Shown: positions 3,896 to 11,973 of the stretch, one piece after another
How the letters are laid out: each line of letters begins with the position of its first letter
Position numbering within the stretch: the first letter of the stretch is position 1
NCBI GenBank assembly: GCA_035281625.1
Contig: DATEDO010000028.1
Coordinates: 11,570-75,569, forward strand
Direction of reading: 5' to 3'
Origin: Candidatus Methylomirabilota bacterium
GTDB lineage: Bacteria > Methylomirabilota > Methylomirabilia > Rokubacteriales > CSP1-6
Length of the DNA stretch: 64,000 nucleotides
Made by a program: the position numbers and the translations under genes
Notes under the pieces: generated by a model
Seen by the model: the letters and a program-made list of their open reading frames with translations, nothing else
Told to the model about the DNA's origin: nothing
Databases searched by the model: none

Positions 3896-5050
3896 TCAGC
3901 GGGAGAGCTTCTCTGCCCGGACGCCGATGAGGCGAAGCTTGCGGCGGCGCGGATTCTCTCGCTCGTCGAGGAATGGCAGGAGGAGCTCCAGCGCGGCCGC
4001 GCTCAGGGTCTCCTCGCTCGCACACGCCTCGGCGCCGGTGCGCGAGCGCACGAGCGTGGTGAAATTCTCGAAGCGGACGGTCACCGTGACGGTCCGGCAC
4101 CCACGGAAGCCGTGGCCTTCGAGCCGGCTCCACACCGTGTGGGCCAGCGCGCGGGCGCGCTCGAGGACGAACGTCGCGTCTAATGTATCGACCTCGAACG
4201 TCTCCTGCTCGCCGACGGACTTGCGCTCGCGCTCGTTCGACACCGCGCTCTCCGAAAACCCGCGCGCCTTGGCGTGGAGGTCGGCGCCCGCGCGCCCGAG
4301 CCACTCCTCGAGCTCCGCCCGCTCGCGCATCCTGAGATCGGCGATGGTGCGGATGTGACGCTCGTGCAGGAACTGCTCGGTCTTGGGCCCGATGCCCGGG
4401 ATGACGCGGATCCGCAAGGGATCGAGAAACGACTGGACCTCATCCGGTCGCACGACGACGAGCCCGTCGGGTTTCCGGAAATCGGAGGCGATCTTGGCGA
4501 CGAGCTTGTTGGGACCGAGACCCACCGACGCGGTGAGCCCCTCCCGCCGCACGATCTCCGCCTTGAGCCAGCGCGCGCGATCGACCGCGGCCTCGAAGCT
4601 GCCGAGCGACGAGAGCTCGAGATAGGCCTCGTCGACGCTGGTCTTCTGGAATGCGTCGCCGGCGGCGGCGAGGATCGTCATGATCCGCGTCGAGACCTCT
4701 CGATAGAGCGCGTGATCGTCACGGACGAAGATCGTCTCGGGCTCGCCCCGGCGCCGCGCCGCCTCGGCCAGGCGCCACGCGCGGGAGATCGGCAACGCCG
4801 AGCGGATGCCGTACCGTCGGGCCGCGTAGCTCGCGGCGGTCACGACGCCGCGGCCGCGGCCCTCCTTGGGATCGGCGCCGACGACGAGGGGCCGGTCGCG
4901 GAGGGCGGGATTCCGCTGCGCCTCGACGGCGGCGTAGAAGGCGTCCATGTCCACGTGGGCGACGATTCTCACCGCGAGCACCGCGCCATCCCGTACCTCC
5001 TCCCTCCTCCAGCGTACCGAATCGGCGGGCCTCTTCGGAATGACGGACAC
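3896..5050 (-). CDS. dinB: DNA polymerase IV (Y-family)
   Basis: VAHVDMDAFYAAVE, SYAARRYGIRSA, SVGLGPNKLVAKIASD and IPGIGPKT motifs are typical of DinB. Confidence 0.9.
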   Translation of the reverse strand: MSVIPKRPADSVRWRREEVRDGAVLAVRIVAHVDMDAFYAAVEAQRNPALRDRPLVVGADPKEGRGRGVVTAASYAARRYGIRSALPISRAWRLAEAARRRGEPETIFVRDDHALYREVSTRIMTILAAAGDAFQKTSVDEAYLELSSLGSFEAAVDRARWLKAEIVRREGLTASVGLGPNKLVAKIASDFRKPDGLVVVRPDEVQSFLDPLRIRVIPGIGPKTEQFLHERHIRTIADLRMRERAELEEWLGRAGADLHAKARGFSESAVSNERERKSVGEQETFEVDTLDATFVLERARALAHTVWSRLEGHGFRGCRTVTVTVRFENFTTLVRSRTGAEACASEETLSAAALELLLPFLDERENPRRRKLRLIGVRAEKLSR

Positions 5051-5346
5051 TCATAGAGACTTGCGACCTCGCTCGGCTCGCGCCCCCCCGTGATCGGCGG
5101 CGGAAAATCCCTTGACACGGCGGTTGTCCGCGCTGTAGGTGACGGACGCGATAACCGGCGCGCGGAAGGGGGTGCCGAGAGGGGGTGTACCGTCACACGA
5201 GGGCCCCTATTCCGTCTACGCCCGAGTTGAACGCATAGTGCCTCTCGCCGGCCCTCGGCGGTGACGAAGACGACAGGTCACCTGTTCTTTCCTTCCCTGG
5301 GCCAATGCCCTGCCGCCCCGGCAGGGTCGGACAAGGAGGGCCACTC

Positions 5347-8259
5347 ATGCGACGCGTTCGCGATCTCTCCCAGTACCGCGACATCCTTCCCTATGCGAGC
5401 GAGATCTTCGGCGTGTACCAGCCCATGCTCGGATGGCGGTCGCGACGGATCCAGGGGCGCATCGAGAAGGGCTTCCGTGGCGACCTCGCCCGCGTATTCG
5501 GGTCGCTGTATGGCCGGTTCAAAGGCCGGTTCGAGTTCAGCCTCGACGACCGGCGCTCGCTCGAGGCGATCCGGCGGCTCGAGCCCGCCGAGCTCCGCGC
5601 GGCCGACCAGCTCCTCGGGGGCAGCTTCGTCCTGGAAAGCGTCGCCCGAAGCCTGCCCCCACTCGAGGACTACAAGGACACGGTCTGGAATGACGCGATC
5701 CGGCCCGAGCGCATCCAGGATACGCTGCGGACGACCGTCGTGCCCGAGGTCACGCGCTGGCACCACACCGCGGTGGCGCGCGGAAGCCAGGAACCCCGCG
5801 GGACGGGCGCCCGGACGGACGACGGCCTCAACGAGCAGGTGGCGGCCCAGCTGAACCGCGAGTCCGCCGTCGCGGGCTTCCTGCTGTACCTCAAAGCCAA
5901 CAACCAGCTCGACGCGCTGAAGCGGATCTTCTACAAGCCGGACGAGCACCTGGGCCGCCTGCTGCAGGTCCTCCGGTACCAGGACCCGCTCGAGTGGCTC
6001 GACCCCTTCCGGGACATCGAGCGCGTCTCGATGTCGCCGATCGGCATCGTGCACCTGTTCCGCCAGTACTTCTTCGAGTTCGATACGTTCCTGGGGCCAC
6101 CGGTCGGGCACGTGTGGCTGAGCCCGGGCGCCAGCGTCGAGCTGGTGGAGATCAGCACGCGGCGGACGCGCGTCGAGCGCACGACCGAGACCCAGGTGGA
6201 GACCCTCCTCAAGACGGAGGAGACGACGACGGAGAGGGACGAGATCGCCGACGCCGTCAAGGAAGACAATCGGTCCGCCACGATGTTCGGCGTGAGCACC
6301 ACGGCCAATCAGGCCTGGATCGGCGGTAGCGCGAGCGCCACCGCCGGCTTCAGCATGGCCGGCACCCAGGCGAAGGCGCGCGAGACCACGCACCGGCGCA
6401 TGCGCCAGCAGACCGAGAAACTCTCGACCGAGATCCGGAAGAACGTGAAGACCACGTTCAAGGTCGTGACCGAGGCCACCGACACCTCGAGCAAGCGATA
6501 CATCCTCGCCAACACGACCCAGCAGCTCATCAACTACGAGATGCGGCGCAAGATGCGTCAGGTCGGCGTGCAGGTGCAGGACATCGGCACCTATCTCTGC
6601 TGGCAGACCTACGTCGACGACCCGGGACGACAGCTCGGCGTCGCCAAGCTGGTGCACCTCGCCAAGGAGCCGGACGTCGGGAGTGTGCCGCCGCCCGAGG
6701 CCGTTCCGATGCCGGGCACCATCGTCACCGAGCACGACATCGAGATCCCCTTCGTGCCGAGGACCCAGGACACCGACCCGAACGAGGACATGGACGAGAT
6801 CTACGAGGACGGCAAGGAGTACGTCACCGAGGACGTCAACGAGGACAAGGAGGAGAAGATCGAGTCGAACTTCTCGGGCTTCGTCGCCGCGTGCGACCAG
6901 GCGGGCTACCAGTATGGTAGCTCCATCCAGTTCGACTACGGCGGAAACGACATCCGGCTCAGCATCCTCACGCTCGTCGAGGAGCAGCCGGGGCGGATCC
7001 GGTTCGGCGTCCACGTGGACCACGTCAACTTCCGGAACGTGTCGCCGCTGCGGGTAAAAGCCAAGGTGACCTGGCGCCCGACGGCCGACACGGTGACGGC
7101 CATCAACGCACAGAACAAGGCGAACGTCGATCGGTTCAACGAACAGACCCGTCTGGCCTTCCAGCGGGCGTTCGTCGACGCCGCGCGGGATCGCATCAAC
7201 AAGGCCGGCAGCGTGACCCCGCGACCGTTCGATGAGCTCCGGGAGGAGGAGCGCATCGTGGTCTACCGGGCGCTCGTCCAGGAGATGCTGACGAAGGACC
7301 TGCCCATGCCGGACGACCGCACGCGGCACGCCGTCGCCGAGCTGCTGAATGCCATCTTCGACGTGGACAAGATGCTGTACTTCACGGGGCCCGAGTGGTG
7401 GCGCCCGCGGCTCCATCGGAGCCACCAGGCGCTCGGCGGTATCCGGGAGCCGTCGCCGATGCCGGTGCCGGAGCCCCTCCCGGTGCCAGCGACCGAGCCG
7501 GCCACGGACGGGGTGAAGAAGGTAATGCGATCGCAGTCCACCAGCATCTACACCCAGGTGAAGTCGGAGGCGCTGAGCAAGGTGGTCAGCGGCTTGCCGG
7601 GTGACGCGTTGGGCAAGGTCGCCACGGGCCTACCTGGCCTTCTCGGCGACACCCAGATCGCCTCCATGGACCGGGTGAGCTGGGGTGGGGAGAGCCGGAC
7701 GGACAGCTACTACATCACCGAGGAGTCGGCGCCGGCGCCGCTCGGCGCGTCTCTCGGCTGGCTGCTCCAGCTGGACGGCGACAACCTGCGCAACGCGTTC
7801 CTCAACGCCCCGTGGGTGAAAGCGGTCCTTCCCATCCGGCCCGGCAAGGAGCGGGCCGCGATCAACTGGCTCCAGCGTCTGCACGTGGAAGGCACCGACG
7901 GCCTCGGCGACGCCTACGTGGCGCCGGCGGACGAGCTCGCCCAGATCCCCCACGCGGGCTCCGTCGTCACGATCCGCGATGCGATCAACCACCTCTGCGA
8001 CGTGGTCGCGGAGAAGCACGAGGCGGCGCTGCAGGTCGGCCGGTATCCGAGCGATGAGATCAACGACGACAACCGCGTGTCCTCGACACCGATCGAGAAG
8101 GTCTACGAGCACGGGTTCTACCCGCTCCAGGGCGGCTTCCGCGCGATGCCAGGGACGGAGGCGTTCGAGGTGTTCGACCAGTGGGTGGAGGTGCTACCGA
8201 CGGATCAGATCGTGCCGGTGGAGGTCGCGTACGACCCGACGACCGGCCGGCAGGTCTGA
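5347..8259 (+). CDS. Large hypothetical protein (970 aa), no recognisable family
   Basis: ATG 5347 lies 7 nt after AAGGAGG (track start 5305 is the alternative). Non-degenerate, motif-rich sequence over the full length. I see no TM helix, signal peptide, P-loop or known catalytic motif. Confidence 0.8.
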   Translation: MRRVRDLSQYRDILPYASEIFGVYQPMLGWRSRRIQGRIEKGFRGDLARVFGSLYGRFKGRFEFSLDDRRSLEAIRRLEPAELRAADQLLGGSFVLESVARSLPPLEDYKDTVWNDAIRPERIQDTLRTTVVPEVTRWHHTAVARGSQEPRGTGARTDDGLNEQVAAQLNRESAVAGFLLYLKANNQLDALKRIFYKPDEHLGRLLQVLRYQDPLEWLDPFRDIERVSMSPIGIVHLFRQYFFEFDTFLGPPVGHVWLSPGASVELVEISTRRTRVERTTETQVETLLKTEETTTERDEIADAVKEDNRSATMFGVSTTANQAWIGGSASATAGFSMAGTQAKARETTHRRMRQQTEKLSTEIRKNVKTTFKVVTEATDTSSKRYILANTTQQLINYEMRRKMRQVGVQVQDIGTYLCWQTYVDDPGRQLGVAKLVHLAKEPDVGSVPPPEAVPMPGTIVTEHDIEIPFVPRTQDTDPNEDMDEIYEDGKEYVTEDVNEDKEEKIESNFSGFVAACDQAGYQYGSSIQFDYGGNDIRLSILTLVEEQPGRIRFGVHVDHVNFRNVSPLRVKAKVTWRPTADTVTAINAQNKANVDRFNEQTRLAFQRAFVDAARDRINKAGSVTPRPFDELREEERIVVYRALVQEMLTKDLPMPDDRTRHAVAELLNAIFDVDKMLYFTGPEWWRPRLHRSHQALGGIREPSPMPVPEPLPVPATEPATDGVKKVMRSQSTSIYTQVKSEALSKVVSGLPGDALGKVATGLPGLLGDTQIASMDRVSWGGESRTDSYYITEESAPAPLGASLGWLLQLDGDNLRNAFLNAPWVKAVLPIRPGKERAAINWLQRLHVEGTDGLGDAYVAPADELAQIPHAGSVVTIRDAINHLCDVVAEKHEAALQVGRYPSDEINDDNRVSSTPIEKVYEHGFYPLQGGFRAMPGTEAFEVFDQWVEVLPTDQIVPVEVAYDPTTGRQV

Positions 8260-8275
8260 TCGGGAGGCCCGTGCC

Positions 8276-9514
8276 GTGCCGATCAATCAGATCAAGGGAC
8301 CGAGAGGGCTGGGGGGGCTGACGCGCCCGAAAATCGCCGACTCCATGAGACCAGGCATCGACAAGGCGACACCCCGCGAGATCGATGAGGCGGTGCGGGG
8401 CAACCGCGGTGACGCGCTGATCATCGCGGGCGTCAACTACCCGATGCCAAGGCAGCGGAGTGTGCAGGTGCCGGCGCAGCACCCCACGTACTTCAATCGG
8501 GCGAAGAATTACGCGCGCTGGGCGTTCGCCAACAGCGCCACCACTCGAATCGATCGGGTCGTGTTCTTCGACTTCCTGTCCGGAAAGATCATGATCTTCC
8601 GGCGCGCGCCGCAGAGCGGCTCGATATGGCTTCGCCTTGACCCCTTGGTGCTGACGAATTACCGCTACGACGTTCACGGAACCCTGACGTTGAAGCCGGG
8701 TCCGCCCGGCGTCCCGAGCGATCAGCAGCACCAGCGCTATTACCACGGCCTCCACGAACTCGCCCGCCATCGGACGGGCAGCCCCGACGCGGACGTCCCG
8801 ACAAAGGAGTATAAGGCACTCATCGGGGGCAGCGTGCACGAGAACAGCCTCTCAATCTTGGATGTCTACTGGGCGATCTCGAAGTCGGTGGCGGGGATGA
8901 TCCGTGAAGTGCACTTCGTGGGTCATGCGTGGAAGGACGGCCCCATCATCGTGAACACCCTCCTCGCCCCATGGAAGCGGCACGACAAGGACGGCCGCGC
9001 CAGCGACTTCAATCCGCATCCGGACCTGCGCCACATCTTCGGCCCGCGTTACGTGGCGCAGTTCCCGGCCGGCTTCACCCTCGGCGCCACGCTCACGATC
9101 TGGGGCGGCAACCGGGACGCCGAGGACGCCAAGGACGACGAGGCCGCGAGCCTGATCGTCGCGGCCCAGGGCAAGGCGAAGGCGGGCAAGCCCGTTGCGG
9201 CGGAGGTGGCGCAGCTGAAGAAACTCATCGGCAAGACGTACGCCGCCCGCCTCGCCAAGGCGTGCCGGCGGACGGTGTACGCGGCGCTGCCCGGCACGTA
9301 TGCGGTGCCCGATGAGGACAAGAAGGACGACCCGAGCCCCTACTCGTTCGTGCCGACCGTGATGCATGTCAACCTGACCAAGTGTGGACACATGCTGGAG
9401 TTCTACCGGAAGCACCTCGGCATCACGTTCCCGACGACCGGCGCCTTCAAGGGGCATCCGACCTTCGGACGCGGCTATGCGAGTTATCCGCCCCCCTACA
9501 CTGCCGCGCCGTGA
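8276..9514 (+). CDS. Hypothetical protein (412 aa), operonic with 5347-8259
   Basis: In-frame GTG 8276 lies 8 nt after GGGAGG and 16 nt after the upstream stop. Track ORF 7979-9514 was trimmed because its 5' part overlaps the upstream gene. No family recognised. Confidence 0.7.
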   Translation: MPINQIKGPRGLGGLTRPKIADSMRPGIDKATPREIDEAVRGNRGDALIIAGVNYPMPRQRSVQVPAQHPTYFNRAKNYARWAFANSATTRIDRVVFFDFLSGKIMIFRRAPQSGSIWLRLDPLVLTNYRYDVHGTLTLKPGPPGVPSDQQHQRYYHGLHELARHRTGSPDADVPTKEYKALIGGSVHENSLSILDVYWAISKSVAGMIREVHFVGHAWKDGPIIVNTLLAPWKRHDKDGRASDFNPHPDLRHIFGPRYVAQFPAGFTLGATLTIWGGNRDAEDAKDDEAASLIVAAQGKAKAGKPVAAEVAQLKKLIGKTYAARLAKACRRTVYAALPGTYAVPDEDKKDDPSPYSFVPTVMHVNLTKCGHMLEFYRKHLGITFPTTGAFKGHPTFGRGYASYPPPYTAAP

Positions 9515-9602: not shown

Positions 9603-10862
9603 TCAGAGCAGCTCGTTCAGCGCATAGAAGAAGTGGTCCGTGAGCTTGTGCGACAGGGCGCGCTTGCGCCAGCGCTCGAGCTGGATCTCGGTCGCCCGCG
9701 CGACGTACTTCTCGAAGATCGCGTCGAACCGGCGCGCGAGCGCCTCGTCCAGGATGGAGAGGGTGAGCTCGTCGTTCGTCTCGAAGGAGCGGTCGTCGAA
9801 GTTGCTCGAGCCGATGGCGCTCCAGACCCCGTCGACGGTCATGACCTTCTGGTGCAGCAGGGTGTGCGGGTATTCGAACAGGCGCACGCCGCACCGCAGG
9901 AGCTTCTCGAAATTGCGGTGGCCGGCGTGCTGCACCATCGGGTTGTCCGAGCCGCTGGTCGACGGCATCAGCACGCGCACGTCCACCCCGCGAGCCACCG
10001 CCGCGCCGAAGGCGTCGATGGCGTCGGGCTCCGGGATGAAGTAGGGATTCTGGATCCAGATGCGCCGGCGCGCCAGGCAGATCGCGGTGTGGTGGAGGAT
10101 CTTCACCGCGGGCGCCGAGTTCTCGGGCTTGGCGAACACCGCGTGCATCATGAGGTCGCCCGCCGGCGCCAGGGCCGGGAAGACGTCGTCCCCCACGAAG
10201 AGCTCGCCCGTCTCGCCGGCCCAGTTCTCGCTGAAGGCGCTTTGCACGGTGTGCACGATCGGCCCGTGCAGGTGGAGGCTGACGTCGGCCACGTGCTTGC
10301 CGTCCTCGGCATTGCCCAGCCACTGGTCCACGATGCAGTGGCCGCCCACGAACGCCTCGCGCCCGTCGATGACCACGAGCTTGCGGTGGTCGCGATCGTT
10401 GAACACGCCGATGTTGCGAATCCGCCGCTCGTGAAAGAACACCACGCGGCAGCCCGCGTCGCGCATCTGCTGCACGACGCGCGCGCCGGCGGCGCGGGAG
10501 CCTTCGGCGTCCAGCAGGACCCGGACCCGCACGCGCGCCCGCGCGCGGTCGATGAGGGCATCGGCGACCCGGCGACCGAGGGCCCCTTCCTTCCAGAGGA
10601 ACGTCTCGAAGTGCACGGATTCGCGCGCGGCGCGGATGCGGGCGATCAGCGCATCGAAGAAGGCACCGTTCTCGAGCACCTCCGCCGAGTTGCCGGCGAC
10701 CGCCGTCCCGAGCGTGAGACCGGCGAGGGTGGGGACCAGCTGATCGATGCTCGCGTCGCACTCGATGTGCAGGTCCGGGTCCCGGTGCCGGCGGATCGAC
10801 CACACGACCAGGGCCAGCACGACGACGACGGCGAAGAGGACTCCGCCGAGAAACACTGCCAT
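9603..10862 (-). CDS. cls: Cardiolipin synthase (phospholipase D superfamily)
   Basis: N-terminal TM helix and two HKD motifs (HRKLVVIDG; HQKVMTVDG...GSSNFDDRS). Confidence 0.9.
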   Translation of the reverse strand: MAVFLGGVLFAVVVVLALVVWSIRRHRDPDLHIECDASIDQLVPTLAGLTLGTAVAGNSAEVLENGAFFDALIARIRAARESVHFETFLWKEGALGRRVADALIDRARARVRVRVLLDAEGSRAAGARVVQQMRDAGCRVVFFHERRIRNIGVFNDRDHRKLVVIDGREAFVGGHCIVDQWLGNAEDGKHVADVSLHLHGPIVHTVQSAFSENWAGETGELFVGDDVFPALAPAGDLMMHAVFAKPENSAPAVKILHHTAICLARRRIWIQNPYFIPEPDAIDAFGAAVARGVDVRVLMPSTSGSDNPMVQHAGHRNFEKLLRCGVRLFEYPHTLLHQKVMTVDGVWSAIGSSNFDDRSFETNDELTLSILDEALARRFDAIFEKYVARATEIQLERWRKRALSHKLTDHFFYALNELL

Positions 10863-11529: not shown

Positions 11530-11973
11530 TCAAGATCTAGCGGGGCCGTGGTAGAGGACGACCGGCCGCACGGCCTTGCGGAACACCTGCTCGGCCACGC
11601 TGCCGAGCACGACCCGTCCCAGGCCGCTGCGGCCCGCCGTCGTCACCGCGATCAGGTCGGCGCCCCACTGCTCGGACTCCTGCAGGATCTCCTCCACGGG
11701 GTCGCCAAAGCGCACGGCGCGCTCGACCGGGACATTGGCGAGGCAAACCTCCACGCTGGCGAGATAGTCCCGGTGTTGGGCTTCCAGCCGCGCCATCTCC
11801 TGGTCGGCGTAGGCGATGAGGTAGCCGTCCTTGCCGTATTGGTTTTCGGGCATGGGCGCTACGTGGAGCAGCTTGACCTCGGCCCCGGCTCCACGCGCCA
11901 GCTCTCCGATGAGCGAAAGCACGGCCTCGGCCGTGGTCGATCCGTCGAGCGGAACGAGAATGCGCTTGGCCAT
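11530..11973 (-). CDS. Universal stress protein (UspA family)
   Basis: ILVPLDGS N-terminus and the C-terminal ATP-binding motif GRSGLGRVVLGSVAEQV. Confidence 0.85.
   Translation of the reverse strand: MAKRILVPLDGSTTAEAVLSLIGELARGAGAEVKLLHVAPMPENQYGKDGYLIAYADQEMARLEAQHRDYLASVEVCLANVPVERAVRFGDPVEEILQESEQWGADLIAVTTAGRSGLGRVVLGSVAEQVFRKAVRPVVLYHGPARS

Follow-up and report, generated by a model that had tools for sequence, protein, structure and literature searches.

The 64,000-nucleotide stretch of DNA analysed here (positions 11,570 to 75,569 of the forward strand of contig DATEDO010000028.1, from a Candidatus Methylomirabilota bacterium) is referred to as the window, and its two adjacent genes, A and B, are our subject. 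All of their features lie on the plus strand and are given in window positions. Gene A (5347..8259) begins with an ATG at 5347, ends with a stop codon at 8257-8259 and encodes 970 amino acids, with the Shine-Dalgarno sequence AAGGAGG at 5333-5339, 8 nucleotides (nt) upstream. Gene B (8276..9514) begins with a GTG at 8276, stops at 9512-9514 and encodes 412 amino acids. The junction between them (8260..8275), just 16 nt long, holds the Shine-Dalgarno sequence of B, GGGAGG, at 8262-8267 and is the site at which the partner of A is exchanged. Both start codons are backed by the N-termini of homologues, MKxxxDLxxY for A and MPINPI for B. GC content at third codon positions is 0.93 in A and 0.87 in B in a window of 70% GC, and we therefore regard both as real, host-adapted genes. 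Neither protein has a transmembrane helix (maximum Kyte-Doolittle hydropathy over a 19-residue window, 0.92 in A and 1.15 in B); A lacks a signal-like hydrophobic N-terminus and has three cysteines in its 970 residues. A first-pass annotation had proposed a co-transcribed two-gene module at this position, and the open reading frames (ORFs), Shine-Dalgarno sites and gap that it gave are all correct, as are the motifs and sub-coordinates that it quoted.

The same annotation treated A and B as a unit. A is indeed tightly coupled to the gene behind it, but that partner is interchangeable, and about 20 other unrelated families are found in the slot. Among 80 genome loci, 67 have an ORF on the same strand as A, no shorter than 240 amino acids and beginning between -4 and +61 nt past the stop codon of A, and five of the 13 loci without a coupled ORF end at a contig edge. 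Clustering by sequence sorts the partners into about 21 groups with no relation to one another. The commonest is a two-HKD phospholipase D (PLD), tightly coupled to A at 19 genome loci (its cluster has 20 members altogether), with PLDc_2 and PLDc domains in the partners at loci L001 and L087; its best relatives by sequence in PDB are human PLD1 (7e-26), human PLD2 and Pseudomonas aeruginosa PldA (7v53; 5.7e-19), which is a type VI secretion system (T6SS) effector (PMC9550806). It is followed by a 492-amino-acid family with weak similarity to GH18 proteins and chitinases (tightly coupled at nine genome loci, with 11 members in the cluster altogether), a 420-amino-acid unknown family (seven loci), Peptidase_S8 subtilases (four), beta-helix proteins (four), PhoD-like proteins (three) and a peptidoglycan amidase of the Amidase_2 family (one). 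The B type accounts for two of the 67 tightly coupled genome loci, or for five copies when those of the window and of metagenomes are included. No signal peptide was seen when the N-termini of the partners were read, and all-against-all clustering of the neighbours at the 80 loci found no conserved third gene, whether for immunity, an adaptor or secretion.

Several further connections among the partners were considered and rejected. B is not related to the other partner families: BLASTP gave E>=0.085 against the PLD type and E>=1.1 against the 492-amino-acid GH18-like type, and the hidden Markov model (HMM) of B matches B-type partners only. Fusion proteins of A with a payload do not hold up, the long match P0078 being a frameshift artefact. 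Nor was a universal targeting peptide found at the N- or C-terminus of the partners; their N-terminal motifs are particular to certain families, for example MPIxP for the B and S8 types and [DE]WFLP for the PLD types.

Comparisons between close relatives place the exchange at the gene junction. The closest relative of A, with 93% protein identity, is encoded in a Candidatus Methylomirabilota metagenome-assembled genome (locus L006). The DNA of the window and of L006 is 92.8% identical from 5102 to 8296, a tract that includes all of A, the first 20 nt of B and the upstream leader or promoter region (5102..5346, with the AAGGAGG at 5333-5339) that travels with the cassette; beyond this, over B, identity drops to 68.7%, and on either side the two loci have unrelated sequence, including on the dinB side upstream of 5102. 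The A proteins of the two loci show a synonymous divergence (dS) of 0.17 and a ratio of nonsynonymous to synonymous divergence (omega) of 0.21, and the B proteins, 58% identical, a dS of 0.61 and an omega of 0.52. Given a dS of 0.61 for B against 0.17 for A, the B alleles are older than the A alleles, which points to allele replacement. A complete change of partner is seen between L013 and the Nitrosomonas oligotropha locus L012, where the A proteins are 93.5% identical and the partners, of the B type and the 492-amino-acid family respectively, are unrelated; the homology is limited by the stop codon of A and by a point about 95 nt upstream of A. Three A proteins with 75-77% mutual identity carry three distinct partners, and a partner type is common to only about 10% of A pairs that are less than 70% identical. 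What lies at this locus is a mobile two-gene cassette, of which the first gene is strongly constrained and the second is refilled by recombination with signal-less, mostly hydrolytic enzymes. Judged from the alignments, A, the chassis, is far more conserved than its payload.

The cassette is found in unrelated genomic contexts. The six that we inspected are mostly housekeeping (MMPL/P450; topoisomerase/pst; NADH dehydrogenase/G6PD); one holds IS66 and mutator transposases, and one copy adjoins phosphate and phosphonate transport genes. The sole defence-island-like context among the six is that of L002, L003, L012 and related Nitrosomonas and Nitrotoga loci, in which type I restriction-modification genes (HsdR, HsdS) and a DUF1016/YhcG gene follow directly after the cassette, about 1.8-7 kb downstream of A. 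A phage origin was considered and rejected: no homologue of A was found in phage records, IMG/VR holds a single locus, and the PHROGs search was blank.

The A family is large and widespread, with more than 1,559 homologous clusters at 90% identity and relatives 42-68% identical over their full length in more than 15 phyla. When 185,579 species genomes, one per species, were scanned in a pattern-limited way, 173 relatives of A were confirmed. The hosts include Mycolicibacterium, Nocardia, Amycolatopsis, Nitrosomonas, Nitrotoga, Hydrogenophaga, Legionella steelei and Paenibacillus, as well as Planctomycetota, Bacteroidota, Chloroflexota, Acidobacteriota, Verrucomicrobiota, Spirochaetia and others, and A is also present on megaplasmids of Bacillus cereus and B. 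thuringiensis.

A had rightly been described as a modular protein, and its conservation is a mosaic in which near-invariant blocks (residues 1-35, 225-445, 581-690 and 776-970) alternate with two variable, confidently folded domains (40-220 and 450-580) and a variable proline-rich linker. The most conserved blocks are those without a confident AlphaFold structure. The model as a whole is poor (predicted local distance difference test, pLDDT, 60; predicted template modelling score, pTM, 0.40) and is confident solely at residues 40-220 and 450-610. Residues 1-35 (5347..5451), modelled with low confidence, carry the conserved N-terminal motif LPYASEIFGVYQPMLGWRS, in which P15, S18, G22, Y24, Q25, G29, W30 and S32 are invariant among 39 diverse sequences. 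They are followed by an alpha/beta-plus-helical domain of variable sequence (residues 40-220; 5464..6006; pLDDT 81-96) and then by the ultra-conserved core (residues 225-445; 6019..6681; pLDDT <50), which has the highest density of invariant columns. This core contains SPIGIVHLFRQYFFEFDTFLG..HVWLSPG, Thr/Glu/Lys-rich strands flanking an amphipathic Gly/Ser/Ala/Thr hairpin, and NYEMRRKMRQVGVQVQDIGTYLCWQTYVDDPG, and it is the segment held in common with the distant A-like proteins described below (HMM E 1e-9 to 1e-13; hhalign probability 97.2).

Residues 450-580 (6694..7086) form an all-beta sandwich domain (pLDDT 85-95) whose variability is among the highest in the alignment and whose only Foldseek matches, to sandwiches of CBM3, pilin, adhesin and tailspike proteins, are insignificant (E 0.8-4). 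Within it, the segment at 6769-6867 (residues 475-507), previously taken for an acidic low-complexity insert, is an acidic motif conserved family-wide, D-x-DMDE-x-Y-x-G-x-E...EG..EKIQ, which could be a metal- or ligand-binding loop. Long helices with the motifs LREEERIVVYR and FDVDKMLYF.GPEWWRPR make up residues 581-690 (7087..7416), where R632, E634-R636, Y640, R641, F671, D672, K675-F679, E683-W685 and P687 are invariant columns; these motifs align with LRRxExEExMK and AIEWENxLYxxYPYFW of the distant A-like proteins. The proline-rich low-complexity linker (residues 695-775; 7429..7671; pLDDT <50) varies in length and is unalignable across the family. The conserved C-terminal domain (residues 776-970; 7672..8256) is again dense in invariant columns and holds the motifs WGG..YYITEES, LGWLLQLDGDNLRNAFLNAPWVKAVLPIRPGKE, YEHGFYP, FDQWVEVLPTDQ and YDP.TGRQ, with conservation through to the final residue; its block APWVKAVLPIRPGKE aligns with GAARVVLTIRPGFE of the distant A-like proteins.

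Neither protein belongs to a recognisable family, as the first-pass annotation had stated, and neither gave a confident match to any housekeeping profile. Pfam, NCBIfam and PHROGs contain no match for A or B, single-sequence and profile searches of PDB sequences found none, and no system model of PADLOC (PADLOC-DB 2.0) was matched. In PADLOC, B gave nothing and A gave one local match, to LeoBC (E=0.0027, 14.9 bits), over residues 319-404, that is, 86 residues of the Thr/Glu-rich core; this weak match to a dynamin-like protein coincides with the conserved amphipathic hairpin. Foldseek found no significant match for the model of A (best E=0.78 in PDB and E=0.1 in BFVD), and, given the poor quality of that model, the missing fold matches are weak evidence either way. 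The AlphaFold model of B is better (pLDDT 74, pTM 0.78), and its best Foldseek match in PDB had E=0.27. We found no published description of either family in the literature, our coverage of which was incomplete.

Close homologues of B are rare (14 clusters, some on contigs also bearing A homologues), and an exhaustive profile search recovered a superfamily of 425 representative clusters at E<=1e-3. The first 45 residues of B (8276..8410) are a disordered extension (pLDDT 30-35) starting with (M/V)PINxI, the first 20 nt of which lie within the tract of high identity to L006; it is missing from distant stand-alone B-like proteins, and a similar MPIxP(I/V) start is also found in the unrelated subtilase-type partners. 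The first-pass annotation saw no catalytic motif that it could name, and no library matches B, but the protein does have a recognisable set of conserved motif residues: H213, H217, D237-K-D239-x-R241, D244-F245 and W276-G277. Most of these lie in residues 213-245 (8912..9010), which read H213-F-V-G-H217-A-W..GPIIVNT, D237-K-D239-G-R241..D244-F245. The corresponding superfamily motifs are E-L-H-F-F-S-H-[AG]-W..GPILVN[ST], D-x-D-K-D-x-R..D-F and W-G-C, and among 149 superfamily members H217 is kept in 139, D237 in 136, D239 in 141, R241 in 138 and D244 in 138.

At residues 276-278 (9101..9109) the B of the window has W-G-G in place of W-G-C. Position 278 is Cys in 138 of the 149 superfamily members, Ser in four and Gly in the B of the window only. 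Gly278 recurs in the two closest homologues of B, P0122 and P0123, which come from independent datasets, and the L006 allele keeps W-G-C. An acidic insertion (RDAEDAKDDEAAS) follows W-G-G, and the Gly278 sub-branch is conserved at 78-86% identity. We suggest that this sub-branch may be catalytically dead or re-purposed and that the B of the window, having lost the conserved Cys, may be enzymatically impaired or work differently. The superfamily bears some likeness to clan CD peptidases (caspase/CHAT), in that a His and then a Cys each follow a hydrophobic beta-strand (hhhhSH[GA] ... hhWGC) with a spacing of 61 residues, and caspase-9 and caspase-11 are among the insignificant Foldseek matches of B (E about 2-3). 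However, neither B nor 110 distant relatives match Pfam C14 or CHAT, and the B of the window, with Gly278, has no His-Cys dyad; we regard the likeness as an analogy only.

In some superfamily members, B-like domains are fused to Trypsin_2, Peptidase_S8, M35, VanY or M15 domains. The fusions P0173, P0177, P0181, P0199, P0220, P0221 and P0229 have acidic, probably disordered N-termini with the repeats ESPF[LF]xxE[LF]F and PFxxAFE, which look like docking or packaging peptides for some partner. The [DE]WFLP start of PLD-type partners loosely resembles these repeats.

The association of A with B also exists between far more divergent proteins. Distant stand-alone B-like genes, from metagenome loci, encode proteins 27-41% identical over their best segment to a distant B-like query, and, where the flank suffices, most of them adjoin a distant A homologue of 850-1,180 amino acids. 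HMM comparison of A with these A-like proteins gave E values of 1e-9 to 5e-7 one way and 1e-13 the other way, and hhalign gave a probability of 97.2 (E 3.5e-11) over 477 aligned columns spanning A residues 226-863. The collinear blocks of this A-like superfamily are PVGxLHLxR...PGE, the amphipathic hairpin, YxQLxRKW...IPEPG, LRRxExEE, EWENxLYxxYPYFW and ARVVLTIRPGFE. Synteny is kept at both depths, A being followed by a coupled gene in 67 of 80 genomes and distant B-like genes lying beside distant A-like genes, and the A-B pairing is ancient.

In one branch of the distant A-like proteins, the C-terminus is a domain of the GspG pseudopilin type (T2SSG), with E values of 1e-10 to 1e-17 (L096:1606-5157, L099:2629-5964, L104:3433-5976, L108:2686-5952 and L097:1-2217); these proteins lack an N-terminal pilin helix, and the placement is unusual for a T2SSG domain. 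DUF6603 (PF20248) proteins of 1,031 and 1,154 amino acids are encoded immediately downstream of B-like genes at L115:2556-5648 and L120:7253-10714. B-like proteins may therefore have another, unrelated family of large uncharacterised proteins as partners. That DUF6603 might be a remote homologue of A was rejected (hhalign probability 0.2 against A3, and no Pfam match for A), and nothing was found on DUF6603 in the literature. At L108 (201-2489) and L109 (692-2914 and 7087-9258) an A-like/B-like pair sits inside a longer same-strand row of genes, the extra members of which include a pro-kumamolisin-type peptidase, an alpha/beta-hydrolase and a 724-amino-acid unknown protein. Some distant branches may be multi-payload operons.

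The genes on either side of the pair in the window are of the types already described for them, a divergent IMS/DinB-family gene (3896-5050, minus strand) and a convergent, cls-like gene with two PLDc_2 domains (9603-10862, minus strand). Both lie outside the module; homology with L006 stops at 5102 and at about 9494. PLD is the commonest class of A partner elsewhere, and the PLDc_2 neighbour in the window looks coincidental. The proposal that it is a displaced partner was rejected, with BLASTP giving E=0.008 against a PLD-type partner and the gene falling beyond the stretch in common with L006. In the region upstream of A we found no sigma-70 consensus, and a search around the module for flanking repeats, for a promoter or terminator consensus and for tRNA or Rfam elements gave none. 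Two cassettes in unrelated hosts, with a PLD and a B-type partner, are followed by a Flavodoxin_2/FMN_red gene (L001:14251-14799 and L004:11703-12302), an adjacency that did not recur in the 80-locus clustering and may be coincidence. At L030, in Mycolicibacterium agri, A is cut at residue ~702 and followed by an ORF that, from its sequence only, is transposase-like, an instance of cassette decay.

The organisational logic, in which the effector varies and the core is constant, is already familiar, and several known systems invite comparison. Among the closest are the T6SS vgrG/PAAR-effector cassettes and polymorphic toxins, in which a conserved carrier gene is likewise followed by an exchangeable effector with breakpoints at the junction and the effector repertoires overlap with ours (PldA-like PLD, peptidoglycan amidase, peptidases). 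The concept of the polymorphic toxin locus reportedly goes back to Zhang and colleagues in 2012. However, A is unrelated in sequence or fold to VgrG, PAAR, Hcp, Rhs, CdiA or any trafficking domain; its payload is a separate gene rather than a C-terminal fusion; no immunity gene recurs downstream, and no secretion-apparatus genes recur, at the 80 loci; and the cassette occurs in monoderms too. The two-HKD, eukaryote-type PLD domain of the T6SS effector Tle5 is present in the commonest partner type, but the B of the window is unrelated to the PLD partners, and no linkage to vgrG, hcp, T6SS or Tli5 genes was found at the PLD loci L001 and L087 or among recurrent neighbours.

Lamassu (LmuB/LmuA), CBASS and Eleos (LeoA/LeoBC) resemble the cassette as small accessory operons that combine a conserved large protein with swappable, hydrolase-type effectors, that spread horizontally and that occasionally adjoin restriction-modification genes. 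A itself lacks any SMC, cyclase or NTPase module and, as regards Eleos, any dynamin-type GTPase domain (no Pfam or NCBIfam GTPase match); it is far more conserved than typical sensors, and in the six contexts the association with defence islands is weak. An analogy with binary AB toxins or holin-endolysin pairs would apply if the constant A gives a signal-less enzyme access to an otherwise unreachable compartment, and the Amidase_2 and GH18-like partners resemble endolysin chemistries. However, A is unlike a holin in having 970 amino acids and no hydrophobic segment (maximum hydropathy 0.92), and, set beside binary toxins, it has neither a signal peptide nor a fold likeness to pore formers of the PA/C2-II/Vip1 or aerolysin types; any membrane activity is one that we purely infer. 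Beta-pore-forming toxins of the aerolysin or ETX-MTX2 kind would be expected to have an insertion hairpin of about 20 residues, compared with about 8-10 per strand in A, a comparison in which the low-confidence model makes the fold test weak. Since the defining features of known systems that we looked for are absent, except for cassette swapping, we place the module outside all known kinds, with the caveat that structure prediction for A is limited.

Our preferred but tentative reading is that A is a carrier or translocator that gives signal-less enzymes access to the membrane or periplasm, and that the pair is a mobile chassis-payload cassette. A and its partner would be made together and form a complex, in which A would supply the step common to all payloads by keeping the enzyme harmless in the cytoplasm. 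A would then move the enzyme across a membrane that belongs either to the producer (triggered lysis) or to a target cell (binary toxin). The parts that carry out translocation would be the ultra-conserved core around the amphipathic hairpin, possibly changing conformation, and the C-terminal domain, and a trigger or target would be recognised by the variable domains (residues 40-220 and the beta-sandwich at 450-580). The payload would then degrade phospholipid, peptidoglycan or protein of the cell envelope, with attack by a binary toxin or phage-triggered self-lysis as the purpose.

The payloads are what lead us to a carrier. Tle5/PldA and peptidoglycan hydrolases are harmless inside the cytoplasm and act outside it, and the partner classes that can be named (PLD, S8, beta-helix, PhoD-like, Amidase_2 and, weakly, GH18-like) are classes that act outside the cytoplasm. 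We favour A as a carrier because the nameable classes normally act on envelopes from outside and are harmless inside, and because no immunity gene accompanies them, an absence that would be explained if the payloads are harmless in the cytoplasm. Further hints of an extracytoplasmic or membrane role are circumstantial: the hairpin, where the weak LeoBC match falls, the conserved blocks that AlphaFold leaves without a confident structure and that may change conformation, the T2SSG relatives, the peptidase fusions of B-like domains and the low Cys content. Several observations weigh against a translocating A. It has no transmembrane helix and no fold match in PDB or BFVD to a pore-former, translocon, holin or secretion component; its hairpin is short, at about 8-10 residues per strand, and contains charged residues in distant relatives; and at the 80 loci no secretion-system genes recur beside the cassette. 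The lack of a conserved third gene that could provide immunity at those loci counts on this side as well, as such an absence is unusual for interbacterial toxins. In addition, the family spans monoderm and diderm bacteria, whose envelope barriers differ, several partner families have no assignable activity, and B, the payload in the window, is without the putative nucleophile Cys.

An anti-phage defence system that acts in the cytoplasm by abortive infection, with A as sensor or regulator and the downstream gene as a swappable killing or arresting effector in the manner of Lamassu or CBASS, is the main rival and a close one, in our view only somewhat less probable, and it matches the genetics equally well. 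The pair is a patchy, horizontally transferred two-gene accessory cassette whose contexts differ even between close relatives, and the swapping of effectors is typical of defence systems; the partners carry no signal peptides, an immunity gene would not be needed if A keeps the effector inactive, and the variable, well-folded domains of A could be ligand sensors. The Nitrosomonas and Nitrotoga copies adjoin type I restriction-modification genes with DUF1016, and other copies lie beside insertion sequence elements. However, only this one of the six neighbourhoods inspected contains another defence system, the rest being housekeeping; PADLOC 2.0 gives nothing past the local match of E=0.0027; and library scans find no NTPase, nuclease, STAND, SMC or other known sensor module in A. 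The conservation of A is also unusual for a participant in an arms race with phages, phage records contain no homologue and IMG/VR has one locus, and beta-helix, GH18-like, PhoD-like and eukaryote-type PLD proteins belong to exoenzyme classes that are atypical as intracellular suicide effectors. It is the conservation of A, the exoenzyme payloads and the weak defence-island signal that make this the poorer fit. The first-pass annotation had likened the pair to defence or toxin modules, and what stands of this is an accessory, mobile, non-housekeeping module; the role itself we can still only infer, with no PADLOC model and a defence neighbour in one of six contexts.

Two further readings seem less probable. 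If A were a scaffold, chaperone or activator of an envelope-remodelling or scavenging hydrolase (for phosphate, chitin or protein), with the partner varying with ecology and no part in conflict, this would accord with the many scavenging-type partners (PhoD-like, PLD, GH18-like, subtilase), with the metabolic character of most neighbourhoods, one copy lying beside phosphate and phosphonate transport genes, and with host-like codon usage. We consider it quite improbable: the distribution is very patchy, at 173 confirmed relatives in the pattern-limited scan of 185,579 species genomes, the location varies between close relatives, the partners lack the signal peptides usual for scavenging exoenzymes, and the replacement of partners by unrelated activities at >93% A identity is awkward for a dedicated chaperone. 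Least probable of all, to the point that we give it little credence, is that A is itself an enzyme, with invariant acidic, His and Arg residues of its C-terminal region as the active site and with A and its partner acting sequentially on a shared substrate. Candidate residues are certainly present, as D810, D812, R815, N816, N820, R831, E835, E848, E921, D944, E948 and D953 are invariant, and H922 as well in the 65-sequence alignment only. Yet library and fold searches detect no catalytic motif or enzyme fold in A, distant A-like proteins keep only part of these residues, and a single enzyme would need to work alongside about 20 partner activities with no chemistry in common.

Returning to A as a carrier, its wider form would be that the A-like superfamily is a hitherto overlooked, self-contained machine, one conserved polypeptide with a modular slot for cargo, that moves across a membrane, or releases on a trigger, any signal-less enzyme encoded behind it, and thus a new route of delivery or programmed lysis in more than 15 phyla; this we hold to be a somewhat doubtful extension. 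If cytoplasmic sensor-effector defence were correct instead, A would be a new type of sensor without known domains. If the carrier reading is true, a widespread conflict or delivery system has been missed by current annotation and defence-finder resources, on a scale of more than 1,500 protein clusters and in hosts that include mycobacteria, nitrifiers, Legionella and the megaplasmids of B. cereus and B. thuringiensis. The natural modularity of the cassette, with partner exchange exactly at the stop codon, would suit the engineering of cargo, and, as the chassis A marks a gene slot, dozens of unannotated partner families could be flagged as candidate effectors.

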